Source of the DNA: a virus
IMG/VR virus record: IMGVR_UViG_3300002835_000070
Span: 1-64,000 of that record
DNA: 64,000 nucleotides
Reading direction: 5' to 3' (one strand)
Part shown: positions 47,215-64,000 of the stretch, one piece after another
Numbering within the stretch: the stretch's first letter is position 1
Layout: the number at the start of each line of letters is the position of its first letter
Program-made: the position numbers and the translations under genes
The notes under the pieces: model-generated
Told to the model about the DNA's origin: nothing
What the model saw: the letters and a program-made list of their open reading frames with translations, nothing else
Databases searched by the model: none

Positions 47215-47469
47215 ATGAAAAAAGGTTATTTAGTAGGTGGTTTAGCGATTGTAGGTGCAATAGCATTATTTATGTATTTAAAACCAAAAAACAAAGCAAA
47301 TTCAGAGGGTTTTTACGGGGCAAATGGTAAATTAACTACCAAAGGAGGTTCGACTTCAAAAGTTCAATTACAATGTAAAAGACCTAATGGAAGTTATTAC
47401 TTACAACCATCAGGAGCAACTGCTTGTGTGTATGGTAGTGACACACCAATTCGTTACGTTGAAAATTAA
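47215..47469 (+). CDS. N-anchored small membrane protein (GGLA-SEGF family)
   Basis: TM helix, KPKNKANSEGFYGANG, Cys-pair tail. Confidence 0.8.
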   Translation: MKKGYLVGGLAIVGAIALFMYLKPKNKANSEGFYGANGKLTTKGGSTSKVQLQCKRPNGSYYLQPSGATACVYGSDTPIRYVEN

Positions 47470-47480
47470 AAACAAAAAAA

Positions 47481-47612
47481 ATGGAAAAGAAATATATCGT
47501 AGGAGGTTTAGCCGTAGTAGGTGCTTTAGCATTATTAGCTTGGTATTTTACACCAAAGAAAAGTTCAGATAAATTCTTGAACGCAACAGGTGGTTGCGGT
47601 TGTGGGGCTTAA
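47481..47612 (+). CDS. 43-aa member of the GGLA family (absent from the ORF track)
   Basis: MEKKYIVGGLAVVGALALLAWYFTPKKSSDKFLNATGGCGCGA. Confidence 0.75.
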   Translation: MEKKYIVGGLAVVGALALLAWYFTPKKSSDKFLNATGGCGCGA

Positions 47613-47614
47613 TA

Positions 47615-47908
47615 ATGGCTTATAAAATTTTACCATATTCAAAAGCACAGGCGGATAAGTTGGGGGTTGAAATAAAGCCCTCAACAAACTCTGTTAAAAA
47701 AATTGATATTTTTAAAAATGGTAAAAAAATTGCTACAATAGGGGCTTCGGGTATGAATGATTACCCGACCTATTTGGAGAAAGAAAAAAAAGGGTATTTC
47801 CCGAAAGGATATGCTAAAGAAAGACGTAGATTGTATAAGCAACGCCACGAAAAAGACCGTCATAAAACAGGGTCGAATGGTTGGTATGCAGATAAAATAT
47901 TGTGGTAA
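47615..47908 (+). CDS. DUF5754-like basic viral protein
   Basis: KK...IGASGMNDY...RRRLYKQRH...GWYADKILW; real start probably the ATG at 47615. Confidence 0.65.
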   Translation: MAYKILPYSKAQADKLGVEIKPSTNSVKKIDIFKNGKKIATIGASGMNDYPTYLEKEKKGYFPKGYAKERRRLYKQRHEKDRHKTGSNGWYADKILW

Positions 47909-48529
47909 ATGGCTCTAATATACGAAAATAAAGTTCCTGCTTCATACAGGATACCTTTTGTTAACAAGGTAAACGAAATTGCACCAAGAATAGGGGTTGA
48001 CCCTAATTGGTTAATGGCAATTATGTACTTTGAGAGCGCAGGTGGTTTTAGCCCGTCTATTACAAATTCATTAGGGTATGTAGGCTTAATTCAATTTGGA
48101 GCATCGGCAAGAAAAACTTTAGGTGTTACAAAAGAGCAACTAAAGGCAATGACCGCAGTAGAGCAATTAGATTACGTTGAAAAATATTTTAATTTATATA
48201 AGGGTAAATACAAAACTTATATAGACACATATTTTGCAGTATTTTTTCCTTTAGCAATTGGAAAGCCCGATGATTGGGTAATTCAAGGCGGAGGTCTTAC
48301 GGCAAAACAAATTTACGATGCGAACCCCGCTTTCCGAAATGTAAAAGACGGAAAATTGAGAGTTTGGGAAGTTAAAAAAACAATGTTAGAAAAACTGCCG
48401 AGCCAATGGCTACAAGACGGAAGTTTTAGTTTGGCAGTTAAAGCATACAAGAATTATATTGCAGTTGGTATATTATCAATATTGGCAGGATTAACATTAT
48501 ATTATTATGGTAGAAGCAGTACAAAATAG
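47909..48529 (+). CDS. Lysozyme-like/lytic transglycosylase with C-terminal TM anchor
   Basis: LMAIMYFES...GLIQF...EQLDYVEKYF; hydrophobic C-terminus. Confidence 0.85.
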   Translation: MALIYENKVPASYRIPFVNKVNEIAPRIGVDPNWLMAIMYFESAGGFSPSITNSLGYVGLIQFGASARKTLGVTKEQLKAMTAVEQLDYVEKYFNLYKGKYKTYIDTYFAVFFPLAIGKPDDWVIQGGGLTAKQIYDANPAFRNVKDGKLRVWEVKKTMLEKLPSQWLQDGSFSLAVKAYKNYIAVGILSILAGLTLYYYGRSSTK

Positions 48530-48701
48530 TCAGACGGGAACACCAAATGAAGAAATGGATAAGACGATAAAAAAAGACGTAAATGCTCAAATACATCAGC
48601 ATTTATCTACAATTTTTGTTGTAGTAGGCATTATATCTTTTACATTGGGTGCAATTGTAAATTGGTACACAATTCAAAGAATTAAAGGCGGAAAAATATA
48701 A
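48507..48701 (+). CDS. Small TM protein
   Basis: STIFVVVGIISFTLGAIVNWY helix. Confidence 0.7.
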   Translation: MVEAVQNSQTGTPNEEMDKTIKKDVNAQIHQHLSTIFVVVGIISFTLGAIVNWYTIQRIKGGKI

Positions 48702-49129
48702 TGAAAATATTTGGACAAGTTTTAGATACAAATGATGAACCAATGGCATTGGCGAATATTACTATTGTTACAGGCGTAAATGCTAATACTATGGGTACTC
48801 ACGGTGATTTAGATGGTAATTTTGTTTTAGAAAGTCCTAATATTGAAAGCGATTCCCGATTTAAGGTTTCTTATGTAGGATATGTATCTCAATTTTTCAA
48901 TACAAATGAATTACAAGGTAAAAAAGTAAAATTAAAAGACGATGTGGAAGAATTGCAAGAAGTTGTAATTACGGCAGGTTCAAAACCGTCTAATTCTTCT
49001 ACTAAAACTAATGTAGTACAATCGAGTAAAAAAAAGTTTGTTCAGCACTTACAAGACCATAAATTCGTTTATGCGGGATTAGGAGGATTGGCAGGAATAA
49101 TATTAATTGCGAGAGCATTTAAAAGATAA
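48701..49129 (+). CDS. Carboxypeptidase-regulatory-like (SusC N-terminal type) domain with C-terminal TM
   Basis: GQVLD..DEPMALANI...GTHGDLDGNF...VSYVGY...LQEVVIT. Confidence 0.85.
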   Translation: MKIFGQVLDTNDEPMALANITIVTGVNANTMGTHGDLDGNFVLESPNIESDSRFKVSYVGYVSQFFNTNELQGKKVKLKDDVEELQEVVITAGSKPSNSSTKTNVVQSSKKKFVQHLQDHKFVYAGLGGLAGIILIARAFKR

Positions 49130-49140
49130 AAAATAAGATT

Positions 49141-49575
49141 ATGGCAAAATATAAATTGTTAATAGATATTGTAACGTATAATTATGGAGGCGGAAACCCA
49201 CCAAAAGTAATTTCGGAAAAATTTGTAATTCCAAAAGGAACAATTGTTGATATTACACCGCAACCGTATTCAGGAACAACTAATTTTTCTTATATTGTAG
49301 ATACAAAATACGGAAAAACAAATCAAAATAATTTTGATAACGGAAGTAAAGACGAACCATCAATCACGATTGAAAAAGTTTCTGAAAACACCCCCGTTAC
49401 TTTAGATGCGAAAATAATTCCTAAAAACGTATCTTCAAATCAATCTATGCAAAATATTAGTTCAGGTATCACAAATGTTGTTCCTGAAACATTTTTACAA
49501 AAACACAAAAACCATTTACTAATTGTTGGAGCATTAGTTATTGGATATTTCGCATATAAAAAAATAAATAATTAA
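49141..49575 (+). CDS. C-anchored membrane protein (KHKNHLL family)
   Basis: Ends TFLQKHKNHLLIVGALVIGYFAYKKINN. Confidence 0.75.
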   Translation: MAKYKLLIDIVTYNYGGGNPPKVISEKFVIPKGTIVDITPQPYSGTTNFSYIVDTKYGKTNQNNFDNGSKDEPSITIEKVSENTPVTLDAKIIPKNVSSNQSMQNISSGITNVVPETFLQKHKNHLLIVGALVIGYFAYKKINN

Positions 49576-49599
49576 ATAAATAAATAAAAATTAAAAGTT

Positions 49600-50037
49600 A
49601 TGGAAACTAAAAAAATATTATTGATAGGTGGTGGAGTAGTAGTTGCTTATTTACTTTACAAAGGATATACTGATAAAAAAGCAAAAGATTTAATTGCTTC
49701 TGACTTATTAGCAACAAAAACCGCAGATTGCGAAGCTAAATTTTTAGAAAATGAAAAAACAGTTAGAAGAAGTGCAGGTTTTGATATGGTTGCTTATAAA
49801 ACGCAATTTATGAAAGACTGTTTAAATGCTACACCTGAAACAGGCGGGGCAGAAATACCTCTTGGAACAGGTGGAATTAAAACACCACAAGAAAACCCAA
49901 TTAAAGGCAATATAATGCCTTTAAAGAGCAATACAATGACTCTTGACGACAATATTATAAGAGGTCAATTAGAACAAGCAGAATTAAGTTTTGCAGGGAC
50001 TAAAGGAAAATCTTTAGCGGGACAATATTATAGATAA
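49600..50037 (+). CDS. N-anchored membrane protein with Cys-pair helical hairpin
   Basis: TM helix; DCEA...FMKDC motif shared with 52294 and 52569. Confidence 0.75.
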   Translation: METKKILLIGGGVVVAYLLYKGYTDKKAKDLIASDLLATKTADCEAKFLENEKTVRRSAGFDMVAYKTQFMKDCLNATPETGGAEIPLGTGGIKTPQENPIKGNIMPLKSNTMTLDDNIIRGQLEQAELSFAGTKGKSLAGQYYR

Positions 50038-50041
50038 AAAA

Positions 50042-50296
50042 ATGGAAAATAAAAATTTATTGCTAATTGGCGGTGGTCTGCTAATAGCTTATTTAGTTTT
50101 TAACAATTTAAAAGCAAATAAAAGAGCAAATGATTTAGAAACGATGGTTGCTTCTATGAATCAAGCAACACAGGAAAATAATATTCAATTAAGCAATGTA
50201 GGTCAATTAGCTTCTGAAGTTGTTGAAACTCCTGCTCCTGAACAACCGCAACAAAGAGTTAGGCTGAATGAAATGCCTTTGTCAACTCGTTATTAA
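50042..50296 (+). CDS. N-anchored membrane protein
   Basis: LLLIGGGLLIAYLVF. Confidence 0.75.
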   Translation: MENKNLLLIGGGLLIAYLVFNNLKANKRANDLETMVASMNQATQENNIQLSNVGQLASEVVETPAPEQPQQRVRLNEMPLSTRY

Positions 50297-50313
50297 AAAT
50301 TAATAAAAAAGTT

Positions 50314-50622
50314 ATGGCAAAATATACATTTGTAAAAGATTATAGTTACACAGTTTACGGAATTGGAAGACAAGATAACACCATAAAAAAAGGACAATCA
50401 TTTGACGGTATTGAAACGGCAAACGGAATTGTTATTTCTCCAAATGGAAGTGACTTATCTAACTATCAAAAAGAGGTTTTGTATCCTGATATGCCATCGT
50501 CATACTTGGAAGTACCTAAAGAGTATTTAACTCAATCGTTCTTTCAGCAACACAAAAACCATTTACTAATTTTAGGAGGATTGGTATTAGGATATTTAGC
50601 ATTTAAAAAATTTAATAAATAA
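50314..50622 (+). CDS. C-anchored membrane protein (KHKNHLL family)
   Basis: Ends HKNHLLILGGLVLGYLAFKKFNK. Confidence 0.75.
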   Translation: MAKYTFVKDYSYTVYGIGRQDNTIKKGQSFDGIETANGIVISPNGSDLSNYQKEVLYPDMPSSYLEVPKEYLTQSFFQQHKNHLLILGGLVLGYLAFKKFNK

Positions 50623-51365
50623 AAAGTTATGAATATTGCAAAACTATCATTAAGTACAAGAATGGCGATAAGTAATAATTTCGGATTTCCAAAAGGGGAA
50701 AACGGAAATATTGGTGCTTTTGTTAAGGTAAGTAAAAATATAGACAAAGAATTAAAAGATTTAGGGGCTTCTATTCAAGGTTTAATGCAGGGTCAAACAA
50801 CAGGAGAACTTTTTACAATTCGATTCCCGATTAATTCACTTGATAAAATATCAGAAATTGACGGTCTTATTTATCTTGATATTGGAGAAAAAGCAAATAT
50901 GAATATTGACAGTCCTAAAAAACAAGCAAATTATAATTTATTAAATGAGCAATATCAAGATGCAATAAATCAGCAAAAGGCTTTAAATAATAAAAGTAAT
51001 TCAGTTTCAAAATATATTTTTAAAGAAGATTACGAGGCTATTGGAACAAATATAATTGACAATAATCTAACAGACCAACGCTCACAAAAATTAAAACATC
51101 AATTTAAAAAAGGAGATGTTTTTGAGGGAAATAAAATAGCAATTGGTGGTGGAGCAGACCCTAATTTTGTTCAATATGGTATAGAAATAATCACTCCGAA
51201 TAATTATTTAGAAGACGGAAGATTCGTGATGTATAATGGAGTATTTCAAGTTCCTGAAATAGTAGTGAGCGAACAAACATTTTTACAAAAACACAAAAAC
51301 CATTTACTAATTTTAGGAGGATTGGTATTAGGATATTTAGCATTTAAAAAATTTAATAAATAAAA
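50549..51365 (+). repeat. Identical 76-bp direct repeat (50549-50624 and 51290-51365) encoding the C-terminal anchor
   Basis: Direct sequence comparison; a more diverged third copy lies at about 49489-49575. Confidence 0.92.
50629..51363 (+). CDS. C-anchored membrane protein (KHKNHLL family) with an extra N-terminal domain
   Basis: Internal KYIFKEDY...KKGDVFEG module and the same C-terminal anchor. Confidence 0.75.
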   Translation: MNIAKLSLSTRMAISNNFGFPKGENGNIGAFVKVSKNIDKELKDLGASIQGLMQGQTTGELFTIRFPINSLDKISEIDGLIYLDIGEKANMNIDSPKKQANYNLLNEQYQDAINQQKALNNKSNSVSKYIFKEDYEAIGTNIIDNNLTDQRSQKLKHQFKKGDVFEGNKIAIGGGADPNFVQYGIEIITPNNYLEDGRFVMYNGVFQVPEIVVSEQTFLQKHKNHLLILGGLVLGYLAFKKFNK

Positions 51366-51368
51366 GTT

Positions 51369-51689
51369 ATGGAAACAGAAGTATCAGTAGCCCCCGTAGC
51401 ACCTGTACAAACAGTAGCACCTATTCAAACGTTAGCGCCATCGTCAGGTGGTGGCGATGACGTATTTGAAAATATGAGTTCACAAAAGCCAATGGATTTA
51501 AAAAGTTTACTTATATTTGGTCTTTTAATCGCATTTTCAATATACGGAATAACGTATTACAGAAAAGCGATTTCTAAATTGAACGAGGATAAGAAGCCAA
51601 ACGATGACTTTTTGAATTTAGTAGATGACGTAGAAGAAGTAAAATACAATGTTAAAAAAGCATTGGGTCAGAAATATTCAACGACTTAA
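51369..51689 (+). CDS. Single-TM protein
   Basis: LLIFGLLIAFSIYGITYY. Confidence 0.72.
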   Translation: METEVSVAPVAPVQTVAPIQTLAPSSGGGDDVFENMSSQKPMDLKSLLIFGLLIAFSIYGITYYRKAISKLNEDKKPNDDFLNLVDDVEEVKYNVKKALGQKYSTT

Positions 51690-51698
51690 TAATAGTTT

Positions 51699-51902
51699 AT
51701 GTCAGCAGTAGCAAAAAACGATAATTCAGCAGTTTTATTAGTAATACCTTTAGGTTTTGCTATTTACTCATATACTCAAAAGTACAGTTTTGGAAAAGGT
51801 GCTTTAGTAACTGTTTTAGGAACTTTAGCAGTAGGCGTTGCGGTTGGGATTTATTCCGTAGCTTCGTTAACTTCTAAATTAGTTGATAAAAGTTATAATT
51901 AA
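51699..51902 (+). CDS. Small two-TM protein
   Basis: Two hydrophobic segments. Confidence 0.7.
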   Translation: MSAVAKNDNSAVLLVIPLGFAIYSYTQKYSFGKGALVTVLGTLAVGVAVGIYSVASLTSKLVDKSYN

Positions 51903-51936
51903 AAAAGATTAAGCCAAGTATAACAACAAAAAAACA

Positions 51937-52119
51937 ATGGAAAAGAGTAAAGGTTTAGGCGATACCATTGAAAAAATTACTAAATTTACAGGAATTAAAG
52001 CCGTTGTAGATGCAGTAGTTGAAGACTGTGGTTGCGAAGCAAGAAAAGATTGGTTAAATGGCATAGTGCCTTATGACGGAAAAAACGTTCAAAGAATATT
52101 AAAGTTTTTTAAAAAATAA
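51937..52119 (+). CDS. Small phage protein (GLGDTIEK...DCGC motif)
   Basis: SKGLGDTIEKITKFTGIK...DCGCEARKDWLN. Confidence 0.7.
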   Translation: MEKSKGLGDTIEKITKFTGIKAVVDAVVEDCGCEARKDWLNGIVPYDGKNVQRILKFFKK

Positions 52120-52153
52120 AAATCAATTATAAATTAAATAAAAAAAAGAAATT

Positions 52154-52291
52154 ATGGCAAAAGCGGTAAACGGGTATTTCAAAGCAATGTTGGAAGCCAA
52201 AAAGAGTAATTCAGCATCTTTCGAGTACAATGGTAAAACTTATGTAGCTTCAAAGACAAAAACAGGTTTAACTGTTTATAAAGCAAAATAA
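52154..52291 (+). CDS. 45-aa basic protein (absent from the ORF track)
   Basis: MAKAVNGYFKAMLEAKKSNSASFEYNGKTYVASKTKTGLTVYKAK; A-rich leader. Confidence 0.65.
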   Translation: MAKAVNGYFKAMLEAKKSNSASFEYNGKTYVASKTKTGLTVYKAK

Positions 52292-52293
52292 TC

Positions 52294-52557
52294 GTGAATA
52301 CGAGAGATTTTCTTTTAGTAGGCACGGGTTTAGTTGTCGGGTTCTTTGTAAAAAGAACTTTAGACAACAGAAATGCACTTGCTTTGGCGGATAGAGTTGA
52401 TTCGCTTCCTGATGATACAAACTATGTATTTTCTCAAAAGTACAAAGATTGTGAGGCAATTGTAAGTCAAGATATGGCTCAATCAAGATACGCAGGAAAT
52501 GTTGATTTAGTTGCTATGAAAAAATCTTTAATTGACGACTGTATGAAAGCAGTATAA
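52294..52557 (+). CDS. N-anchored membrane protein (MNTRD family)
   Basis: TM helix plus DCEA...IDDC. Confidence 0.72.
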   Translation: MNTRDFLLVGTGLVVGFFVKRTLDNRNALALADRVDSLPDDTNYVFSQKYKDCEAIVSQDMAQSRYAGNVDLVAMKKSLIDDCMKAV

Positions 52558-52568
52558 AAATAAAAATT

Positions 52569-52883
52569 ATGAACACGAGAGATATAGTTTTATTTGGTGT
52601 AGGGGCATTTGCAGGATACCTATTGGTAGGCTATTTGAATAAAAACAAAGTAGCTTCAGGAGCAACCGATACAATGGGTTTACCTGATACCTCTTCTCAA
52701 ACAGTACCGCCTGAAACAATAGGTTCTACTGATTCAAATGGCGGAGAAACATTAGTTGACCCAAGATTGACTTTATGCGAGGAAAATTGGGGTAAATTTT
52801 CATCTACACAAAGATTTGGTTCAGCAGAACAAGCACAATCAGTACACGATAATTTTATTACAAGTTGTTTAGCTAAAGGATAA
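52569..52883 (+). CDS. N-anchored membrane protein (MNTRD family)
   Basis: TM helix plus LCEE...FITSC. Confidence 0.72.
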   Translation: MNTRDIVLFGVGAFAGYLLVGYLNKNKVASGATDTMGLPDTSSQTVPPETIGSTDSNGGETLVDPRLTLCEENWGKFSSTQRFGSAEQAQSVHDNFITSCLAKG

Positions 52884-52895
52884 TAAATTGTAACT

Positions 52896-53543
52896 ATGGA
52901 ATTTAACGATTTAACATACGGAAATCCAACTGTTGAGGATTTAGTTTACATTCAGGGAAATGGATTGACAGACGACCTTTTTGAAACATTAAAGTCCAAG
53001 TTGTCATATCCAAAAAATGATTCTGAATTAGTTAAGGACGAACTTAACGAAATTGTAGATGCTTTGGCAACAATGGCTCAACCTGAAAATCAAAACTATT
53101 TAAAAAGATACAAGTCTTACGATAGGAATTTAATTCAGTCGCTTTCAGCAATATTTAAACAAAGAAATATTGATGTTGAACAATTGTGTAAAGACGTAGT
53201 TATGGATATGCAAAATTTGATTTATAAATTAAAATTTTACTATCAAAGACCACGACCAAAGCAAATTGCGCAATATTACAAGTTGAAATTATTTCCATAC
53301 AAAAGTTTTTCAGCACACACGCCATCGTTCCCTTGCGGACATTGCGTACAAGCAATTGTAATGCTTAACGTAATAGGAAATAAAAACCCTACTGAATATC
53401 CGTTCTGTAAAGAACTAATTGAAGATATTGCATACAGTAGAGTATATTTAGGACATCATTTTCCAAGCGATAATGACGGAGCAAGAGAAATTGGTAAAGC
53501 GATTTTAAAACACCCTGAATTTGCGAAAAAATACGGCATATAA
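52896..53543 (+). CDS. PAP2/haloperoxidase-superfamily phosphatase
   Basis: KFYYQRPRP, PSFPCGH, SRVYLGHHFPSD. Confidence 0.88.
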   Translation: MEFNDLTYGNPTVEDLVYIQGNGLTDDLFETLKSKLSYPKNDSELVKDELNEIVDALATMAQPENQNYLKRYKSYDRNLIQSLSAIFKQRNIDVEQLCKDVVMDMQNLIYKLKFYYQRPRPKQIAQYYKLKLFPYKSFSAHTPSFPCGHCVQAIVMLNVIGNKNPTEYPFCKELIEDIAYSRVYLGHHFPSDNDGAREIGKAILKHPEFAKKYGI

Positions 53544-53591
53544 ATTTATTTGTACGCCTTAATAAAAACCAAGACTAAACTAACAACAATT

Positions 53592-53978
53592 ATGAAACAC
53601 GAGGAATATGAACTACAAAAATCAGTAGCCCGTTATTTATCTTACCAATATCCAGATGTTGAATATATGTCGGATACTATTGCCTCTGTAAAACTTACCG
53701 AAAGACAGGCAGGGCGAAACAAACTTGTTCAAAAGAACAATTTTAAATGTCCTGATATTTTGATATTTGAGCCACGCAATAACTTTTGTGGCTTGTTTAT
53801 AGAACTTAAAATTGAAACCCCTTTCAAGAAAGACGGTACAATTAAGGCTTCTCAAAAAGACCATTTGAAACTACAACACGAATGTTTACTTAAACTAACC
53901 TCAAAAGGTTATAAGGCGGTATTTTCTTGGAATTTTGATATGACAAAGCAAATTATTGACGAATACTTAAATCAATAG
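53592..53978 (+). CDS. VRR-NUC-like PD-(D/E)XK nuclease
   Basis: EYELQ...CPDILI...GLFIELK...Q...L...GY. Confidence 0.8.
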   Translation: MKHEEYELQKSVARYLSYQYPDVEYMSDTIASVKLTERQAGRNKLVQKNNFKCPDILIFEPRNNFCGLFIELKIETPFKKDGTIKASQKDHLKLQHECLLKLTSKGYKAVFSWNFDMTKQIIDEYLNQ

Positions 53979-53980
53979 CT

Positions 53981-55678: not shown

Positions 55679-56503
55679 ATGGAAGAAAGAGAACCGAAAT
55701 TATTAGTTGCAGTTGGACGTAAAGGGTGCGGTAAAACTTTTTCAACAAGAAAAATGCTTACAAGTTATGTTCAAGGCAATATTTCAAAAGGTATTGCCCC
55801 AAGAAGAGTTTTAATATTTGATGTAAATGATGAGTTTGAGGACATAAAAGCATTGGCTTTAAAAGATGTGGCTTTATTTTCTATGCACCCAAAAATAGAG
55901 ATAAGAAGAATTAGACCATTCAACAAGGACGGAAGACCTATGGGTATTAATGAAATGCAAGAAACATTATTTAAAATAGTTAATAATTTTAGAGGAGGAA
56001 TGCTTTTGTTAGAGGATTTAAACGGTTACGTTGGGGATTATATCCCACAGGATTTAATAGGTAAAATAGTAAGAGCAAGACACGCAGATTTGGACATAAT
56101 TACGCATTTTCAATCAATAGGAAGAATATCGCCTAAAATTTGGCAGAACGTCAACGCTATTCGTTTTCACAAAAATACAGATTCAGTTTTAAAACATTCC
56201 AAGAAATTTGATAATTTTTCAGAAATGTTTTTATTAGTGGAGGCTTATGTAAATTCCGAGTATCATTTAGGAAATGAAAGAATACAAGTTTGGGTTGATA
56301 CAGAAAACGAAAAAATTAAAATACCAAAAGAAAATATAGCTAAATTTGAAAAAATTGTAGAATTGTACTTAATGGAAAACCATAAAAGAATACTTTCCCC
56401 TTTATTAAATAAAAATATTTTCTTTAAAAATAATAAACCATTAACAATGCAAGAAGTTTTAAAAATAAAAAAAGCAGAAATGTTAAAATATTATTTAGAT
56501 TAA
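55679..56503 (+). CDS. A32/P9-like FtsK-HerA genome packaging ATPase
   Basis: Walker A GRKGCGKT, LIFD, Walker B LLLED, arginine-finger motif RARH, then hhhxQ. Confidence 0.78.
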   Translation: MEEREPKLLVAVGRKGCGKTFSTRKMLTSYVQGNISKGIAPRRVLIFDVNDEFEDIKALALKDVALFSMHPKIEIRRIRPFNKDGRPMGINEMQETLFKIVNNFRGGMLLLEDLNGYVGDYIPQDLIGKIVRARHADLDIITHFQSIGRISPKIWQNVNAIRFHKNTDSVLKHSKKFDNFSEMFLLVEAYVNSEYHLGNERIQVWVDTENEKIKIPKENIAKFEKIVELYLMENHKRILSPLLNKNIFFKNNKPLTMQEVLKIKKAEMLKYYLD

Positions 56504-56517: not shown

Positions 56518-57111
56518 TTATAAATATTTATTTGTAATTCCGTTTTGTTTTTCAAAATCAACTCTTTTTTGGTAAGCCTCCTCTTCAGTTTTAAACATTC
56601 CGAACCGAACAGATTTTCCATTAAACTGAATTGAACTTCTCCATTTATTATCTCTTTTAAAATATGAAACGCCAATATATTTACTTGTGCAGTTTGAATT
56701 TTTAACCCTATGACAGCTATTTTCCCTATTGTTTACCCATTCTAAATTTGAAATTTTATTATTAAGTTTATTTCCGTCAATATGGTTTACTTGCGGATTA
56801 TTTTTTGGGTTATTAATAAACGAAATAGCAATCAGCCTATGTATTTTTTTTGTAATTTCAAGTGCATTTTTACAAAAACCTACTTCCCAATAACCCCTTT
56901 TACTTATATGTGGTTTTTTTATTAATACCTTATAAATGCACTTTTTCCCACTTATAATAAGTGTTTTCTCTAAAGATTTTACTCTTCCAAGATTCGATAT
57001 TTGATAATACCCCTCGTAATCAGGAACATCTTTCCATTCTTCAACACGAGTAACACCATTATCATCTATATAGACAATATCTTCTAAACTTAAATCTTTG
57101 TAGTAATCCAT
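56518..57111 (-). CDS. NUMOD4-HNH-AP2 homing endonuclease
   Basis: EEWKDVPDYEGYYQISNLGRVKS, HRLIA, VNHIDGNKLNN, SKYIGVS...KWRSSI. Confidence 0.93.
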   Translation of the reverse strand: MDYYKDLSLEDIVYIDDNGVTRVEEWKDVPDYEGYYQISNLGRVKSLEKTLIISGKKCIYKVLIKKPHISKRGYWEVGFCKNALEITKKIHRLIAISFINNPKNNPQVNHIDGNKLNNKISNLEWVNNRENSCHRVKNSNCTSKYIGVSYFKRDNKWRSSIQFNGKSVRFGMFKTEEEAYQKRVDFEKQNGITNKYL

Positions 57112-57113
57112 AA

Positions 57114-57210
57114 AATAAAAAACCCATAAATCAATAGGTCGAAGTCTATATCATTATGGGAATTTAATTATTTTTTTTATTTCGGCTTCGACTCCGACAG
57201 TACAAATATA
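57114..57210 (-). promoter_or_regulatory. Promoter plus structured leader of the NUMOD4-HNH gene
   Basis: TATATTTG on the minus strand (57203-57210); crossing stems 57184-57192/57138-57146 and 57154-57160/57123-57129, then a U tract. Confidence 0.6.
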
Positions 57211-57362
57211 ACTAATGTATTTTGACCAAAATAAAAATTAAGTATTTTTTATGAAAAATAAAATTATTCTTTGTAAAATTCTTTTCACTACCTTTGACAG
57301 ATGCTATAAAATAGCTTAAACCAAGAAACTTTAATAACAAATAAATCAATAAAATTAAAGTT

Positions 57363-57605
57363 ATGAAAAAAAGTAGATTTAGTAAGTTATGTCTAAAAGA
57401 CCTTTCACGGGGTGTGATAATGACAGTAGGTACAACTTTTGTAGGGTTGTGTAGCACAAGTGTAGTTTCGGGAATATTTCCTGCGGTTGCAGATTTTATT
57501 AATATGGGTAAGGTAGGTTTGCTTTCAGGAGCAGTTTATTTAGTTAAAAACTTCCTTACAAACTCAAAAGGCGAATTTTTAAAACAAGAAGAAGATGTCG
57601 TATAG
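57363..57605 (+). CDS. Putative holin
   Basis: Two hydrophobic segments, YLVKNFLTNSKG tail, overlaps the endolysin start. Confidence 0.65.
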   Translation: MKKSRFSKLCLKDLSRGVIMTVGTTFVGLCSTSVVSGIFPAVADFINMGKVGLLSGAVYLVKNFLTNSKGEFLKQEEDVV

Positions 57606-58122
57606 TTATTTAAGCAAAGAGGCTTCGCCTCAAATTTTAGTTCAAGCAAAATCCCTTTTAGGAACTAAAGAAATTGTAGGCGTTATTCATAATAAAACTA
57701 TTATGAGTTGGGCTAAAGGTTTAGGTCTTGAAAAAATATATACCTCTGACGAAATCGCTTGGTGCGGTTTATTTATGTCAGAAGTTTGTAAAAAAGCGGG
57801 GGTAGAAACCAACTTAACCCCTAAAGATTCATTGTGGGCTTTAAATTGGAGTAAATTTGGAACAAAGCAATCAGTAGCGATGCTTGGGGATATTCTTACT
57901 TTTAAAAGAAACGGAGGCGGACACGTTGGTATTTATGTTGGGGAAGACGATACTTGCTATCATATTCTTGGGGGAAACCAATCTAATATGGTTTGCGTTA
58001 CTCGAATTGAAAAATCAAGAGTTAACAGTATTAGACGTACAAGTTGGAAGTCAAAACAACCAAGTAATGTAAGGGTAATAAAACTCGAAAGTAACGGTAT
58101 AATTTCTAAAGACGAGAGTTAA
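57595..58122 (+). CDS. NlpC/P60-CHAP-type cell wall hydrolase (TIGR02594-like endolysin)
   Basis: DEIAWCGLF, GDILTFKRNGGGHVG, ILGGNQSN. Confidence 0.88.
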   Translation: MSYSYLSKEASPQILVQAKSLLGTKEIVGVIHNKTIMSWAKGLGLEKIYTSDEIAWCGLFMSEVCKKAGVETNLTPKDSLWALNWSKFGTKQSVAMLGDILTFKRNGGGHVGIYVGEDDTCYHILGGNQSNMVCVTRIEKSRVNSIRRTSWKSKQPSNVRVIKLESNGIISKDES

Positions 58123-58123
58123 T

Positions 58124-58513
58124 ATGGAAAATTTAAAAAATGTTTTATCAAACAAACTAAACCTGCTTATACTTTTGGTAGCAATTATTTTTTGCTTCCA
58201 AGTTTTTAGTTTATTTAGTAACGGTAATGAAACCCAAAAAATCAACTACATCAAAGATGAAATATCTGATTTAAAAACAGGGGTAAAGGTTATTTACGAT
58301 TCATACGAAAGAATGGATAAAAAAATTGAAACTTTCAATACGAAAATAAATAACATTGACAATCAAGTAAAAATAAATAATACTAAAATAGATAATCTAA
58401 AAAAAGATGAAAAAACTAAAATTGATAATTTCAAGTCTTATGATGCTCGTATGTATGAGCGTTATTTCACAGAACGCTATGCAAAAAAGCCAAGTACCGC
58501 TACAATCAAATAA
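58124..58513 (+). CDS. Spanin-like protein (N-terminal TM plus coiled coil)
   Basis: Follows the endolysin; overlaps the next gene. Confidence 0.55.
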   Translation: MENLKNVLSNKLNLLILLVAIIFCFQVFSLFSNGNETQKINYIKDEISDLKTGVKVIYDSYERMDKKIETFNTKINNIDNQVKINNTKIDNLKKDEKTKIDNFKSYDARMYERYFTERYAKKPSTATIK

Positions 58514-58844
58514 AGTAGTAATAGATACTTCCATAGCAAGGAAAATAGCAACAGACCTTGTAAGAGGAGATTTCTGTAAAGCAGAAATAAAGTTAGTCAG
58601 AAGCAATTTAGACTTAACGAAGAAACAAGTAGTACTAAAAGACAGTATCATAAAGACTTTAGGAACTCAAAAGGAAGAACTTAATTTGATTATTTCAAAA
58701 AAAGATGAAATGTTTTCCAAACAAGAGGAAATATCGAATAGTTATAAAAAAGAATTGTCAAAACAAAAGGGAACAACGTTCCTTTATAAGTTACTATCCC
58801 TGTTAGGTGTTGTTTCTACCTCACTACTCATAATAAAACCATAA
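58407..58844 (+). CDS. Spanin-like protein (signal peptide, coiled coil, C-terminal TM)
   Basis: Overlapping reading frame in the lysis cassette. Confidence 0.55.
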   Translation: MKKLKLIISSLMMLVCMSVISQNAMQKSQVPLQSNKVVIDTSIARKIATDLVRGDFCKAEIKLVRSNLDLTKKQVVLKDSIIKTLGTQKEELNLIISKKDEMFSKQEEISNSYKKELSKQKGTTFLYKLLSLLGVVSTSLLIIKP

Positions 58845-58847
58845 CAC

Positions 58848-58877
58848 AAAGCGCACCAATACGGTGCGTTTTTTTTT
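58848..58877 (+). terminator. Intrinsic terminator after the lysis cassette
   Basis: GCGCACC-AATAC-GGTGCGT plus T tract. Confidence 0.88.
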
Positions 58878-59046
58878 GCTCATTACCTTTACGTTGAGAA
58901 TAATTAAATAGTTTGTGAATTATTATTTAATGATAAAGTAGGCGTTAAATAAATTTGATGTGCTATTATGCTATAAATTTGGCTTTGATATTATTTCTGT
59001 AAATTAATATCATTAAAAATAAGTTTAACAAAAAAATCATTCTGAA

Positions 59047-59178
59047 ATGAAAAACGAAATTGTTCCTTTATTGAAAAGCGTTGCCGTTGTAGTTGTAGGT
59101 GTGTTAGTTGCTAACTATGTTCAAAAAACATTGTTGACTAAAGCAGTTGTCGCTCCCGCTTCTTCTTCAGCAGTATAA
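59047..59178 (+). CDS. 43-aa TM protein immediately upstream of the capsid gene (absent from the ORF track)
   Basis: MKNEIVPLLKSVAVVVVGVLVANYVQKTLL...; TAAATTTG promoter-like elements at 58950 and 58974. Confidence 0.7.
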   Translation: MKNEIVPLLKSVAVVVVGVLVANYVQKTLLTKAVVAPASSSAV

Positions 59179-59232
59179 TTAGGTGTCAAAACCGAGTAAA
59201 AAAATTAGTAAATAATATTAAATTAAATTAAA

Positions 59233-59928
59233 ATGTCAAACGTAAGAAGATATTTAAGCAATGCACGTCAAAGTGCAATGGAATCTTTCTCAAATGCTGA
59301 CGGATTCATCGACCAAGACCTGTCATTCACAGGAGATGATTTCTTTAGAGCAGACGGAGGAATGGGGCAACAAGATATTCAAACATCTCAACCCTACATT
59401 ATCAACGTTACTTCTACATCAGGAGCAGCGATTGCTAACTTTGCTATATTAGGTTCATACCAATATATCAATAACACAGGATTCGTTAACGGTTCGTTAA
59501 CAATCGGTCCAGTGACTGTGAGTTCAGGTATTCCTGACATCACTTACCAAGAAATGTTATACCAATTTATGAATAATCCTTATTCTGTTGGTTTAACTTA
59601 CATCCAATCGGCTACTACTAACCAAGTTCTACAAACTTTGTCAGTAAACACGAGAGATGCGAATGGTAACTTGGCACAAAAAACTTTAGTGCCTACAATT
59701 GACCCATATCAGCAACAAACGAATATCGTTGCAATGAAGTATGCTTACCGTATTGATGGTTTCACAAAAATCATCATTGCTCAAATTTTAGCAACTGCTA
59801 CATTGTCATTATACTTCTATCCTGCTGATAACATCAACCTTGCAAGAGCATTGGGTGGTCAACCTGTAAGCAGACAATTCGGAACACCTCCTGTAACTAA
59901 TGGACAAACCATCAAGTTAAGAGCGTAA
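59233..59928 (+). CDS. Candidate major capsid protein (single vertical jelly-roll-like)
   Basis: About 150-aa beta-strand-rich core; apparent enrichment in TTC/ATC/AAC codons; own terminator; near the A32-like ATPase and among TM proteins. The fold is inferred. Confidence 0.7.
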   Translation: MSNVRRYLSNARQSAMESFSNADGFIDQDLSFTGDDFFRADGGMGQQDIQTSQPYIINVTSTSGAAIANFAILGSYQYINNTGFVNGSLTIGPVTVSSGIPDITYQEMLYQFMNNPYSVGLTYIQSATTNQVLQTLSVNTRDANGNLAQKTLVPTIDPYQQQTNIVAMKYAYRIDGFTKIIIAQILATATLSLYFYPADNINLARALGGQPVSRQFGTPPVTNGQTIKLRA

Positions 59929-59966
59929 TTATCAGTGATGATATAACGAATTAATGTATAATTTAG

Positions 59967-60006
59967 AAAAAGAGCAAGTTTGATTTATTTCTACTTGCTC
60001 TTTTTT
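59967..60006 (+). terminator. Intrinsic terminator after the capsid gene
   Basis: AAAAAGAGCAAGT...ACTTGCTCTTTTTT. Confidence 0.85.
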
Positions 60007-60023
60007 GCTTAAAACAAATAACT

Positions 60024-60461
60024 ATGAACGTATATGAATATGTTGCGGATTCAAATCCAAGAGTAGCAGAACAAATAATGAACTCATTTAATTATGATGT
60101 CGTTAATTCTGCTGATATGGGATTGAGCCAATTAGTTGACAAGGTCGGAGAACCTGCTTTGCAAAAAGTAATGGAAAACCACCCTGATAAAGAAATTATT
60201 TTAGAGATGTTCTCTAAAAAAGAGGATAGTAAGGATAGTACTTGCGGTTGCGATAGTTGTAGATACAGAAATCGAAATGGCAATGAAAATTTGAATTATC
60301 TTAATATGACAGGCAGTGGGAATGTTTCTCCTACTAATGTTCCAAATACAACTGCTACTGATTCTACTTCAAATACTCATTTATTGGCAAACCAAACAAA
60401 TGTCATTTTAGTAGTATCTGCATTATTCATAGCAACTGCATTAATTTTAAAAAATAAATAA
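60024..60461 (+). CDS. Putative virion membrane protein (C-terminal TM)
   Basis: HPDKE.I, CGCDSC, YLNMTG, C-terminal hydrophobic helix. Confidence 0.72.
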   Translation: MNVYEYVADSNPRVAEQIMNSFNYDVVNSADMGLSQLVDKVGEPALQKVMENHPDKEIILEMFSKKEDSKDSTCGCDSCRYRNRNGNENLNYLNMTGSGNVSPTNVPNTTATDSTSNTHLLANQTNVILVVSALFIATALILKNK

Positions 60462-60463
60462 AA

Positions 60464-61138
60464 ATGGCAAATTCAAAAGCGACTCCTCAATTAGGAGCAT
60501 TAACATTAGTATTACTTGTAAGAAATTATAGAAGCCAAATGATTGCTTTATTGGCAAGAAATGGTGTTGCGGTAAAACCTAATGCGTCAGAACAAAATAT
60601 AGCCAATTTAATGGCTAATTTATTAAAAGTATCAAAATCTTTTTTCAAAGATTTAAGCGACTTTTTAACTAACCCTGCGGTAACTAAAGTACTTGCAGAT
60701 GGGGTTGCTAAAGTTTCACAAACTGCTCAATATATGAAAGCAAGTGGAAATGGGTATATGAATTATGAGGGGGAAGAATATGACGATGCTTACTTTGAAG
60801 AAGACCCTATTGACCCTGCATTACCTGTACCGTCAAATACTCCAAAAAAAGGGTTTTGGTCAGATTTGAATTTTGCAGAAATATTAAAAGGAGGTATGAA
60901 TCTTTTTGGTAATTATACAAAAGCACAATCTGATGCTGAAATAGCAAGGCAACGTGCTAAAGTTGCAGAAGCGGGAGGTGGAGCAGTTGTTTTAGACCCA
61001 ACGACAGGGGAAGAAGTTGACCCAAATGACAAACCTGATACGGGATTGGGTACAACTACAATTGTTGTATTAAGTTTAGTAGGCGTTGCATTATTAGGAA
61101 CTGTAATATATTTTATTGCAAGACCTAAAAAATCTTAA
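60464..61138 (+). CDS. Putative virion membrane protein (C-terminal TM)
   Basis: IVVLSLVGVALLGTVIYFI; YMKASG and YMNYEG motifs. Confidence 0.72.
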   Translation: MANSKATPQLGALTLVLLVRNYRSQMIALLARNGVAVKPNASEQNIANLMANLLKVSKSFFKDLSDFLTNPAVTKVLADGVAKVSQTAQYMKASGNGYMNYEGEEYDDAYFEEDPIDPALPVPSNTPKKGFWSDLNFAEILKGGMNLFGNYTKAQSDAEIARQRAKVAEAGGGAVVLDPTTGEEVDPNDKPDTGLGTTTIVVLSLVGVALLGTVIYFIARPKKS

Positions 61139-61149
61139 AAAATAGAGTT

Positions 61150-61374
61150 ATGATTGATGAAAAAATGTTATCCAATATAATTGGGGCTTCTGTTGGAACT
61201 TATCCTAATGAAGTTGCTGACTTCCTTGTGCGTAATAACGTAATTGCACCTGCACCTGAATACACGCTTGACCAATTGGTAGAGGGTGTATTTATAGGTT
61301 TGAATAAAAATCCAACTTTTACTCAAGAATATGGTTCTTGGGTAGAGCAAATTATAACTACATTAACCTTTTAA
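61150..61374 (+). CDS. Hypothetical structural-region protein
   Basis: Operon packing; FLVRNNV resembles LLARNGV of 60464. Confidence 0.65.
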   Translation: MIDEKMLSNIIGASVGTYPNEVADFLVRNNVIAPAPEYTLDQLVEGVFIGLNKNPTFTQEYGSWVEQIITTLTF

Positions 61375-61386
61375 AAATATAATATT

Positions 61387-61692
61387 ATGGCAGGATGGGC
61401 AGATGCTTTAGGAGCAATATTACCAGCTTTTATAACGGTTGGCGGAGGATTAATTTCGCAAAACCAATTAGTGCAACAAGCGCAAGGTCAAGCTAATGAT
61501 GCAAGAGCATTAGCTGAAAAACAATACGAAACTGCATTGGCACAACAAAAGGCGCAAGAATTAGCTTCAATAAATGCAAACAAAAATAAAGTCGTAACTC
61601 CACCAAAGAACAATACTTTACTTTATGTTGGATTAGGTGTAGGCGGTGTTGTTTTAATTGGAGTTGTAATTTTTGCGGTTACGAGAAACTAA
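61387..61692 (+). CDS. Putative virion membrane protein
   Basis: Ala/Gln helix plus C-terminal TM. Confidence 0.72.
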   Translation: MAGWADALGAILPAFITVGGGLISQNQLVQQAQGQANDARALAEKQYETALAQQKAQELASINANKNKVVTPPKNNTLLYVGLGVGGVVLIGVVIFAVTRN

Positions 61693-61711
61693 TTTTTAAT
61701 AAATATTAGAT

Positions 61712-61927
61712 ATGCAAGATTTTTTAGCACAAGCGAAAGACATAGCGAGTAAGGACAAAAGAGAAATTCTTATGGTAACTACTCAAGCATCGGTAAACGG
61801 TGCGGTTACAGGACTTGTTTTGGGTCTTATGATTGGTTATTGGAAAAACAAAAATATTTACATCACAGGTCTTGTAGGTGCTATCATTGGTGGTGTTGCT
61901 ACAAGTATTATAGTTAATAAAAAGTAA
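61712..61927 (+). CDS. Small two-TM Gly-rich protein
   Basis: GAVTGLVLGLMIG...GLVGAIIGG. Confidence 0.72.
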   Translation: MQDFLAQAKDIASKDKREILMVTTQASVNGAVTGLVLGLMIGYWKNKNIYITGLVGAIIGGVATSIIVNKK

Positions 61928-61934
61928 TATAATT

Positions 61935-62870
61935 ATGGATTCATCAAAATTATTGATAGTTGGGGGAGTAGTTTTAGGAGGTTTTTACCTTTTAAATAAA
62001 GGAAAAAAAACAAAAGCAGATGCGGATACAAAAGCATTAGCAGACGCTCAAGCACAAGCATTAGCTTTAGCAATGGCAACCCCAACAATACCCAATCCTG
62101 TCGTTGTAGAGTCAAAATTCTATACTCCTGCCGAAGCAACTAAAAAAGCATTGGAAGTTGTAACTAAATGGATAAGCCTTTTAGATGCTATTCCAAAAGA
62201 AGCGTTGACAGAGGAAAACAAAAATATACTCAATCAAAAGGCTTGGGATGAAAAAGCAAAAAAAGATAAAGCCGAATATGATAAAGCATTAGCACTTGCG
62301 AAATCAAAAAATGAACCTAAATTTACTTTTGGCGATACGAATTATTGGACGGCTAATGAAGAGGATGTTAGAAACGGAAGTTGGGTTAAAGTATTGTCGG
62401 CAAATGTTTGGCAACCAAACAATATTATTTCTTATTCTAATTCATTTAAAATTAGAGATGGCGACAGAATGTTTGAAATTAGTCGTGCGAATCTTATGTT
62501 TTCAAATGCCCCTAAAAATTTAGGAGATTATGTAAAGAGAGTGAAACAAATAGATTTTTCAAATGTTTACGATGCTTTAAAAGTACAATTTGCAGAACTT
62601 CCAAAAACAGATGTTGATAGGTTAGTAATATTATTGCCTAAATATCTTTTGGTAGTAAATGATGATTTTAAATATTTTGAAAATTATTTACAGCAAAATC
62701 CATTTACAATAGAAGAACAGTTGTATTTAAAAGATGTTAGTATTGATAGTTTATTCAATCCTAAAAAAACCGTAACACCTCAATTCTACGGTAATCCGAT
62801 TATACAAAACGCTACATCATTTGCAAATGCGGTACAAAACGCTACATCAATAGCAAATGCGGTTAGGTAA
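61935..62870 (+). CDS. N-anchored membrane protein
   Basis: LLIVGGVVLGGFYLL; 30-bp tandem duplication at the C-terminus (QNATS.ANAV x2). Confidence 0.72.
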   Translation: MDSSKLLIVGGVVLGGFYLLNKGKKTKADADTKALADAQAQALALAMATPTIPNPVVVESKFYTPAEATKKALEVVTKWISLLDAIPKEALTEENKNILNQKAWDEKAKKDKAEYDKALALAKSKNEPKFTFGDTNYWTANEEDVRNGSWVKVLSANVWQPNNIISYSNSFKIRDGDRMFEISRANLMFSNAPKNLGDYVKRVKQIDFSNVYDALKVQFAELPKTDVDRLVILLPKYLLVVNDDFKYFENYLQQNPFTIEEQLYLKDVSIDSLFNPKKTVTPQFYGNPIIQNATSFANAVQNATSIANAVR

Positions 62871-62890
62871 ACAATAGATAAAAAAAGATT

Positions 62891-63001
62891 ATGAAAAAGC
62901 AAAATATAATAATTGGTTTAGTTGGATTAGTAATTTCTCTTGGAGTAGTTTACGGATATACCTATGTAATTGGAAAATCTTGGAAAGCAAGTCAAAAATA
63001 A
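62891..63001 (+). CDS. 36-aa TM protein (absent from the ORF track)
   Basis: MKKQNIIIGLVGLVISLGVVYGYTYVIGKSWKASQK. Confidence 0.65.
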   Translation: MKKQNIIIGLVGLVISLGVVYGYTYVIGKSWKASQK

Positions 63002-63021
63002 TTAATTAAAAAATTAATAAA

Positions 63022-63462
63022 ATGGAAATTTTAAAAGACAAAAAAATATTAGTAGGTGGTTTGGCAGTAATAGGAGGTATAGCACTCGTTGCTTACTTGT
63101 TAAAGCAAAAAACACCAACAAGAAATTCAGAGGGGTTTTTTAATGCGGGTGGGAGAATTTTACCAATAAAAGAACCAATATTACCAAAAAACCAAGAGGT
63201 TTGTAATTTGCCTAATAATTTTGTTAGACAGGTAGTTACTAAAACAGGAGTAATTAAAAATTTTTGCGGTAGATACGATAGGGTTATAGCTATGACACCA
63301 ACAGGTAAAGGATTTCAATACAGGTTGCGACCTGAAATTCCGAGCGCAACTTTTATAAATGGTGGTTTTGTAAATTCAAACGGAACGGGAATTATTACAA
63401 CATATCAAATAATTAGTAGTTCTGATTATGAATCCGCATTTATTTATGGACAAAATTGTTAA
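63022..63462 (+). CDS. N-anchored membrane protein (GGLA-SEGF family)
   Basis: TM helix, RNSEGFFNAGG, Cys-containing domain. Confidence 0.78.
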   Translation: MEILKDKKILVGGLAVIGGIALVAYLLKQKTPTRNSEGFFNAGGRILPIKEPILPKNQEVCNLPNNFVRQVVTKTGVIKNFCGRYDRVIAMTPTGKGFQYRLRPEIPSATFINGGFVNSNGTGIITTYQIISSSDYESAFIYGQNC

Positions 63463-63489
63463 AAAACATTAATCATTAATTCAAAAAAA

Positions 63490-63837
63490 ATGGAAAAGAA
63501 GTATTTAGTAGGAGGTTTAGCAGTAGTAGGTGCAATAGCATTGTTTATGTATTTAAAACCAAAAAACAAAGCAAATTCAGAGGGTTTCTTTAATATGAGT
63601 GGGTTTAATCCTCAAACAAATCCATTTATACCAAATTCTTTTACAAGACAAGATAGATTTTGTAAAGTTTGTGTGCAGTATGATAAAATACAATCGCCTA
63701 AAGGAGGGTTTATGTATTTAAAAAAACTGTACAACCCTAACCAATCTATTAGCGAAGCATTTAGTATCACAGAACAAGAATACACATCTGCGTTTACTAA
63801 AAACGGACTTTGTAAAGTAAATCCACCAACAAAATAA
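63490..63837 (+). CDS. N-anchored membrane protein (GGLA-SEGF family)
   Basis: TM helix, ANSEGFFNMSG, Cys-containing domain related to that of 63022. Confidence 0.78.
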   Translation: MEKKYLVGGLAVVGAIALFMYLKPKNKANSEGFFNMSGFNPQTNPFIPNSFTRQDRFCKVCVQYDKIQSPKGGFMYLKKLYNPNQSISEAFSITEQEYTSAFTKNGLCKVNPPTK

Positions 63838-63865
63838 AACATTAACAATTAAAATTATAATAAAA

Positions 63866-64000
63866 ATGGAAAAAAAGTATATCATCGGAGGTTTAGCAGT
63901 AGTAGGTGCAATAGCATTATTTATGTATTTAAAACCAAAAAACAAAGCAAATTCAGAGGGTTTCTATGGTGCAAATGGTAGATTAACTACAAAAGGAGGT
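63866..64000 (+). CDS. GGLA-SEGF family protein, truncated by the window end
   Basis: MEKKYIIGGLAVVGAIALFMYLKPKNKANSEGFYGANGRLTTKGG, nearly identical to the N-terminus of 47215. Confidence 0.8.
   Translation, partial: MEKKYIIGGLAVVGAIALFMYLKPKNKANSEGFYGANGRLTTKGG

Follow-up and report, generated by a model that had tools for sequence, protein, structure and literature searches.

Why do a putative capsid protein and several membrane proteins unrelated to it carry the same short peptide? The question is raised by a stretch of 64,000 nucleotides (the window), which is the first 64 kb of the 102,228-bp viral contig IMGVR_UViG_3300002835_000070 and derives from an uncultured bacterial virus with many relatives. 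In its late part, from position 47215 onward, the pattern aromatic-x-Asn-Ala/Met-x-Gly, here called the tag, is common to the front arm of a capsid-type protein and to several unrelated membrane proteins. All motif strings that an earlier note on this DNA had listed were found at the genes named there. Comparison of sequences supports the view that the tag is a selected, virus-wide short linear element, placed like a processing or docking signal. In our reading, it is an assembly tag that is read by one viral factor.

The capsid-type protein harbours two copies of the tag.

59233 to 59928, plus strand: 231-residue jelly-roll virion protein, capsid candidate on the basis of an AlphaFold2 model, weak generic jelly-roll matches and 1,451 homologues (clusters in metagenomes).
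59287 to 59304, plus strand: tag copy 1, FSNADG, residues 19-24, immediately following the N-terminal helix.
59341 to 59358, plus strand: tag copy 2, FFRADG(G), residues 37-42, about 10 residues upstream of the first core strand.

In the AlphaFold2 model a disordered arm (residues 1-51) with a helix at residues 3-17 precedes a confidently modelled beta-sandwich core of 8 strands (residues 52-198) and a disordered tail. Fold comparison gave Z scores of 6.1 with the PR772 penton protein, 5.4 with the phiCjT23 capsid, 5.3 with the FLiP capsid protein and 6.9 with a carbohydrate-binding domain, and the Foldseek matches (C1q/TNF-like and picornavirus-like) were weak and of the generic jelly-roll type. 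We infer the role in the capsid from this model of a generic 8-strand jelly roll without decisive structural match. Both tag copies persist in every relative, at identities between 96 % and 43 %. The motif is conserved in homologues, and the refutation proposed in the earlier note, which included a lack of such conservation, fails. Copy 1 reads [FY]-x-N/G-A/M/V-x-G across the orthologues and copy 2 F-F/M/Y-x-A-x-G, with positions 3 and 5 and the linker behind it drifting freely. Four further genes encode the same jelly-roll domain (6650-7174, 14648-15112, the tandem double 17225-18418, and contig 97286-97750, L040:13286-13750), all without tag and tagged arm. In two of these paralogues (6650 and 14648) only 6-8 residues precede the first core strand, and the protein begins a little downstream of the point aligned with tag copy 2. 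The arm is thus a separable appendage, which only the jelly-roll copy of the structural module has. Three of the four paralogues lie in an early, glycosyltransferase-rich region, and the paralogues may be capsid components or, for example, carbohydrate binders.

The remaining carriers of the tag in the window are anchored proteins and a mini-protein.

47215 to 47469, plus strand: N-anchored membrane protein with FYGANG at residues 33-38 (nucleotides 47311-47328), followed by a small Cys-containing domain.
47481 to 47612, plus strand: 43-residue mini-protein made up of a helix, FLNATG (nucleotides 47574-47591) and six more residues, GCGCGA.
60024 to 60461, plus strand: C-anchored protein with YLNMTG at residues 92-97 (nucleotides 60297-60314), in the linker before the C-terminal helix.
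60464 to 61138, plus strand: C-anchored protein with YMKASG (nucleotides 60731-60748) and a degenerate YMNYEG (nucleotides 60755-60772).
63022 to 63462, plus strand: N-anchored membrane protein with FFNAGG at residues 39-44 (nucleotides 63136-63153).
63490 to 63837, plus strand: N-anchored membrane protein with FFNMSG at residues 33-38 (nucleotides 63586-63603).
63866 to 64000, extending to contig 64117, plus strand: N-anchored membrane protein, a paralogue of the one at 47215, with FYGANG (nucleotides 63962-63979).

Conservation of the tag was also seen in these families. Orthologues of the mini-protein at 47481-47612 have the same length in L006 and L002. In the family of 60024, comprising 33 unique orthologues, the aromatic residue, Asn and Gly are each present in 33/33, the neighbouring columns are less than 65 % identical with many indels, and the tag is the only conserved element of the linker. 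Orthologues of 60464 hold 1 to 4 tandem copies, the number varying by virus. The string YMNYEG had been listed as an instance in the earlier note and is present, but with Tyr at position 4 it falls outside the pattern of that same note; at the aligned position the orthologues have canonical copies, for instance YSNASG and YANAGG. A profile of the N-anchor revealed 50 members in related loci, nearly all strong matches being tagged and some members having two or three consecutive tags. Downstream of the tag these proteins continue into divergent small domains or end. The family comparison thus bears out the claim that in N-anchored proteins the conserved anchor ends and variable sequence begins at the motif. 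Beyond the window, the closer members of the 69432 family are tagged, and in distant relatives the tag is found on further unrelated proteins, in some at the extreme N-terminus. A decayed tag occurs in 51369-51689 (VFENMSS, with Gly replaced by Ser), of which the L021 orthologue (L021:2551-2883) has FENMSG. Cys-Gly-Cys clusters adjoin the tag on one side or the other in carriers unrelated to each other, namely 47481-47612 (tail GGCGCGA), 60024-60461 (CGCDSC before the tag), L034:17811-18116 and L035:18577-18873; they may serve in metal binding, disulfide linking or lipidation.

Could such a pattern exist without any function, as a result of paralogy, composition or chance? The pattern [FYW]xx[AM]xG matches 12 times in 47215-64200 compared to 2.8 +/- 1.8 in shuffles, and the tighter [FYW]x[NGRK][AM]xG matches 9 times compared to 0.7, an excess over shuffled proteins of about 4 to 13 times that is inflated, since the paralogy of the five N-anchored proteins makes the window counts interdependent. 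When all 1,728 patterns of the shape a..b.c were scanned without bias in the late proteins, leaving out the fibre-like repeat proteins, the tag pattern ranked third (17 versus 6.0, z 4.0). The two patterns above it are transmembrane glycine patterns, and the tag tops the non-transmembrane ones. In 38 related loci the tag pattern was found 213 times where 35 were expected, with enrichment in nearly every locus. Among the three independent checks, namely the scan, the 38 loci and the orthologues, the behaviour of the tag in orthologues is the decisive one. An absence of function could draw on the paralogy of five window instances and on several loose matches in enzymes and fibre repeats that are due to chance, but it is hardly credible, as the tag persists while its flanks drift, in five or more unrelated families and down to 43 % identity, and is enriched sixfold in the 38 loci besides being the top non-transmembrane pattern. 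Loose-pattern matches unrelated to the tag are the fibre-like YNTASG repeats and those in the folded enzymes 12027, 46432 and 47909. Three fibre-like paralogues (contig 77766-81002, 81996-84554 and 84573-88928) share a near-identical N-terminus of about 60 residues, and a fourth fibre-like protein (contig 89224-90834) has a different one. All four repeat GGG-x-Y-N-T-A-S-G, and these repeats match the loose pattern and swell raw counts.

The position profile, drawn from 182 unique instances, indicates what a reader would have to recognize. Phe/Tyr, Ala/Met (Ala in 146, Met in 36) and Gly are invariant. Position 3 is Asn in 120 instances and, in a third of the whole set, one of Gly, Ser, Arg and Lys; position 5 varies (Ser, Asp, Gly, Asn, Thr, Val). 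The residue at -1 is acidic in 114/182, with Gly/Asp/Asn at 0, and no residue is preferred after the tag Gly, which is followed by Gly in 20/182. The aligned instances give the extended form (Asp/Glu)-(Gly/Asp/Asn)-[Phe/Tyr]-x-Asn-[Ala/Met]-x-Gly. Three known types of site were rejected on this profile. An N-glycosylation sequon does not fit the presence of Asn in only 120/182 and of Ser/Thr at position 5 in only 74/182, and Asn-dependent self-cleavage does not fit an Asn that is not invariant. An adenain-type site, (M/I/L)-X-G-G-X or (M/I/L)-X-G-X-G, is at odds with the small number of following Gly residues and with the Ala and Met counts at position 4. The tag might still be an acceptor or recognition site for modification, either glycosylation by viral glycosyltransferases or lipidation near the Cys-Gly-Cys clusters. 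Position 3 is most often Asn, some tags conform to N-x-S/T, the genome encodes several glycosyltransferases and the clusters often lie beside the tag. However, no modifiable side chain is invariant and positions 3 and 5 vary, and such a role is considered very improbable.

The placement of the tag is uniform. Every copy is found in an unstructured stretch that links an anchor, which is a transmembrane helix or the N-terminal helix of the capsid-type protein, to a globular part. In N-anchored proteins the tag stands a median of 11 residues past the helix (interquartile range 9-12), and the median distance from tag to C-terminal helix is about 96 residues; the copies are mostly internal and in few cases N-terminal. 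A signal peptidase site was rejected, because the helix is followed by too long a segment and a helix of that kind is missing from the capsid-type protein. A C-terminal sorting signal for sortase or exosortase was rejected because of the distance of about 96 residues to the C-helix, the occurrence of the tag after N-terminal helices and in a soluble protein as well, and the lack of an evident signal sequence. A T4-type capsid-targeting sequence at the extreme N-terminus is not compatible with tags that are mostly internal, 11 residues past the N-helix or up to about 100 before the C-helix. The segment following the N-anchor helix is the more basic one, so that by the positive-inside rule the tag side would be cytoplasmic. 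On reading, the C-anchored carriers have no evident N-terminal signal sequence, which would likewise place their tag-bearing parts in the cytoplasm. With all copies on the cytoplasmic, capsid-facing side, one soluble viral factor and the capsid protein could meet all of them.

The charge of the flanks differs between carriers, being -2.1/-2.3 for the two copies of the capsid-type protein, +1.2/+1.1 for the N-anchored proteins and neutral or acidic for the C-anchored ones. This bears on the idea of a self-pairing zipper or sticker, in which the tags of the capsid arm would pair with those of the membrane proteins in the form of kinked aromatic segments or short beta strands, with opposite flank charge favouring the contact, and would concentrate the capsid protein on a patch of viral membrane. 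The identical tag on both partners, the opposite charge of capsid-type and N-anchored flanks, and the tandem Tyr/Ser/Gly-rich arrays of some relatives, which are like low-complexity aromatic segments, are in line with this idea. However, the strict conservation of Asn, Ala/Met and Gly in a tag that is usually present as a single copy points to a specific reader, and the flanks of the C-anchored carriers do not have the required charge. Self-pairing is therefore regarded as improbable.

Which viral factor might be this reader? The favoured candidate is a 261-residue protein with the sequence HEFSH, encoded at contig 65177-65962, 1.2 kb past the end of the window. This zincin is present in 5/5 complete relatives with 61-90 % identity, its gene is syntenic with the capsid gene, at a distance of a few kb, in all 15 more distant loci checked, and it is represented by 675 representative clusters. 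The residues H188, E189, H192, E202 and D206 are invariant in 98 sequences of 29-65 % identity. The structural model, with a predicted local distance difference test score (pLDDT) of 96, consists of a beta-sandwich (residues 1-92) and a helical zincin domain (residues 106-252). The fold of the latter matches BepA (Z 8.9 over 116 residues), 3c37 (7.0), Ste24 (6.7) and abylysin (6.1), and the catalytic domain is predicted to be M48-like, a gluzincin with HExxH and a downstream Glu. A profile search of the PDB returned only HtpX, at E 1.4, and searches of Pfam and PHROGs yielded nothing for the capsid-type protein, the tag carriers or the zincin. Complex prediction for the zincin (98-row alignment) with residues 1-60 of the capsid N-arm gave a score of 0.08, with the mark at 0.32, and counts neither way. 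As judged from conservation and gene order, the zincin is a candidate protease, of predicted activity, that resides in the morphogenesis module and is co-inherited with the capsid gene. A papain-fold protein of the LRAT/PPPDE-like type (contig 97728-98207, L040:13728-14207) is also found in L048, and the corresponding match in G005 contains an in-frame TGA. As a common reader it was rejected, since only 3/5 complete relatives have it.

It is proposed that the tag would mark proteins that come together where membrane and capsid of the particle adjoin, namely the arm of the capsid-type protein with its two copies, the N-anchored family with one copy, and at least three families of other anchored proteins. 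The soluble zincin 65177-65962 would be the reader of all copies and would cut at or beside the tag during maturation, thereby trimming the arm of the capsid-type protein and freeing or remodelling the anchored proteins. That the zincin both reads the tag and cuts there is put forward tentatively. Cutting is supported by precedents in other viruses, by the zincin as a core gene, by the placement of the tag between anchor and globular part and by the separable capsid arm.

Several observations weigh against this proposal. No Pfam peptidase model matches the zincin. The capsid arm is conserved about as well as the core, which indicates that the arm has a function of its own. Among the unique N-anchored tag proteins, 9/45 end at most 8 residues past the tag. 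Those of 41 residues, consisting of helix and tag, show 6-8 synonymous compared to 0-2 non-synonymous codon differences between genomes and thus are real genes under purifying selection, and cutting them would set free no useful product. Arrays with up to four tandem copies are more suggestive of avidity than of processing, and the zincin could instead act on the polyvalent proteins, in cell-wall entry or in another task.

Some of these features would suit docking without cutting, in which the tag is a binding peptide that tethers the membrane proteins and the capsid arm to a common folded partner. This partner might be an assembly factor, the zincin's beta-sandwich or the underside of the shell of jelly-roll proteins, and the binding would attach the membrane to the capsid or bring proteins into the particle. 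The conserved helix-and-tag mini-proteins of 41-43 residues, kept by purifying selection, fit minimal tethers, and a copy number of 1 to 4 is as expected for avidity-based motifs. The distance between helix and tag in the N-anchored proteins is constant, with the median and narrow range given above. At the place aligned with the tag, the tandem paralogue 17225-18418 has Phe-Phe/Tyr-Phe followed by lysines, and these aromatic and polybasic segments suggest that jelly-roll arms face the membrane. However, the constant distance is partly inherited through paralogy. Docking without cutting remains a doubtful but serious explanation, and cutting by the zincin is held to be slightly likelier. The two are not mutually exclusive; capsid-targeting peptides of T4 and protein pVI of adenovirus serve both docking and cutting.

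Is the tag related to the punctuation of the giant proteins of this virus? The earlier note had suggested kinship with the GG motif of the polyprotein, [YF]-A-x-G-G, and perhaps one protease for both, and this is not supported: register, Gly-Gly requirement and location all differ. At the 49 sites of the polyprotein motif the aromatic residue stands directly before Ala/Glu, Gly-Gly is invariant and a hydrophobic residue is found two places after Gly-Gly, whereas in the structural tag Ala/Met comes three places after the aromatic residue and no constraint is seen on what follows Gly. In the five complete genomes the tag occurs around the capsid gene and the polyprotein motif in the giant proteins, thus in separate regions. 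The string FFRADGG fits both patterns by accident, its orthologues being FFNAGGN, FFNAVGS, FFSANG and FFGADA. The [YF]-A-[DKN]-G-G punctuation of the polyvalent proteins does share with the tag an Ala-x-Gly after an aromatic residue and a position between modules, but nothing favours one enzyme for both classes of motif. What is retained of the earlier idea of a maturation cleavage site or capsid-binding peptide is a real selected element, conserved and placed in disordered linkers, with a protease candidate in the module; the kinship with the GG motif is not.

The proposed cutting would have well-known parallels. In T4 (gp21), phiKZ (gp175) and adenovirus (its protease, adenain), a single enzyme cleaves numerous virion proteins, in each case at a short consensus of its own. 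For T4 gp21 (L/I-x-E, with capsid-targeting peptides on internal proteins) and phiKZ gp175 (S/A/G-x-E) the consensus is present on the major capsid protein and many virion proteins, as is the tag; the protease gene likewise lies in the morphogenesis module and the site at the edge of a removable or targeting segment. However, the virus described here has a jelly-roll protein, a small P-loop ATPase and many membrane proteins, its motif is a different one that is mostly juxtamembrane instead of N-terminal, and the serine protease of those phages is replaced by a zincin candidate with presumed cutting activity. Adenain ((M/I/L)XGG-X and (M/I/L)XGX-G, in pIIIa, pVI, pVII, pVIII and others), pS273R of African swine fever virus (ASFV; GG-X) and poxvirus I7 (AG-X) provide a maturation code in a jelly-roll lineage that is partly membrane-associated. 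Their sites also contain glycine, with several close together near a terminus, and the docked and cut pVI is a membrane-active protein. In contrast, the second Gly is not conserved in the tag, position 4 is Ala/Met with an aromatic residue three residues before it, the host is bacterial, and the only cysteine-peptidase-like gene found, the LRAT/PPPDE-like one, is limited to 3/5 relatives.

The M48 proteases and minigluzincins (BepA, HtpX, Ste24, abylysin) have the HExxH and downstream Glu that are likewise invariant in the zincin, and members of the M48 family act on membrane or membrane-proximal proteins. Unlike these, the zincin has no transmembrane segment, carries an N-terminal beta-sandwich, is encoded by a virus within a structural module and has no Pfam or PDB sequence match. 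PRD1 (P16, P30) and PM2 (P3/P6 lattice) have small anchored proteins as tethers under a jelly-roll shell, with the N-termini of the capsid proteins facing the membrane, but their genomes measure 10-15 kb compared to 70-102 kb for the lineage described here. These tethers are not known to have a linear motif in common with the capsid protein, and neither proteolytic maturation nor a shared targeting signal is known from the assembly of tailless phages with a membrane, such as PRD1 and PM2. As a kind of system, a short code on many virion proteins together with a protease gene, the present one resembles by analogy those of T4, phiKZ and adenovirus, although virus type, motif and candidate enzyme differ.

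It may be, though we advance this with reserve, that the locus encodes a protease system for particle maturation, the first in a bacterial jelly-roll virus that contains a membrane, and that an M48-like zincin cuts a tag on the capsid protein and at least five anchored families and frees them from their anchors after the shell has formed. If true, this system would correspond, on the bacterial side, to the maturation codes of adenovirus and ASFV, with a different enzyme as its basis. The lineage is very widespread in the environment, as judged from the 1,451 capsid-protein and 675 zincin clusters, and the tag bears on the coupling of membrane and shell and on the question whether a maturation code like that of T4 or adenovirus exists in this virus type. 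The tag could furthermore be used to predict virion proteins of uncultured relatives.

The window has a G+C content of 31 % and its genes lie almost all on one strand. The first 45.5 kb harbour early genes and genes for polyvalent proteins. The module from 45.7 kb onward encodes abundant small membrane proteins in addition to two SLT transglycosylases, an NlpC/P60-like protein, a PAP2 phosphatase, a P-loop ATPase and the 231-residue protein.

55679 to 56503, plus strand: 274-residue P-loop ATPase, weakly matching AAA_22, HerA and a terminase family of PHROGs.

This protein is likely the genome-packaging ATPase of the structural module. No matches to portal, terminase or HK97 were found among the proteins searched, and a tblastn search of cultured-phage records with the capsid-type protein gave no match. 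Relatives of the 231-residue protein are present on dozens of IMG/VR contigs of 36-101 kb. A literature search found no description of the tag, of the YADGG motif or of this lineage of large jelly-roll Bacteroidota viruses, and a paper on polyvalent proteins (PMC5512222) describes neither the tag nor the polyprotein motif. A 132-kb contig of a Sediminibacterium sp. metagenome-assembled genome (L180, JBBAJS010000009.1) harbours a capsid-type gene that is 89 % identical; it is possibly a lead to the host (Chitinophagaceae, Bacteroidota) or else a binned viral contig. The other bins with capsid-gene matches are short contigs and probably mis-binned.

A cluster of glycosyltransferase genes (window 3947-6001, 12027-12734 and 15114-16388), belonging to the glycosyltransferase, galactosyl transferase and GtrB-like families of PHROGs, suggests that glycosylation is encoded by the virus itself. 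The PAP2-family phosphatase (window 52896-53543, E 1.6e-12) is encoded among the membrane-protein genes, with lipid remodelling in the viral membrane as a possible role. The gene at window 56518-57111, one of the few on the minus strand in this region, encodes a homing endonuclease with NUMOD4, HNH_3 and AP2 domains and lies between the ATPase gene and the structural genes. Finally, three otherwise different proteins (window 49141-49575, 50314-50622 and 50629-51363) end in a near-identical C-terminal anchor, FLQKHKNHLL-I/V-(L/V)G-(G/A)LV-(L/I)GY-(L/F)A-(F/Y)KK-(F/I)N-(K/N), which is a second swappable anchor module besides the N-anchor.

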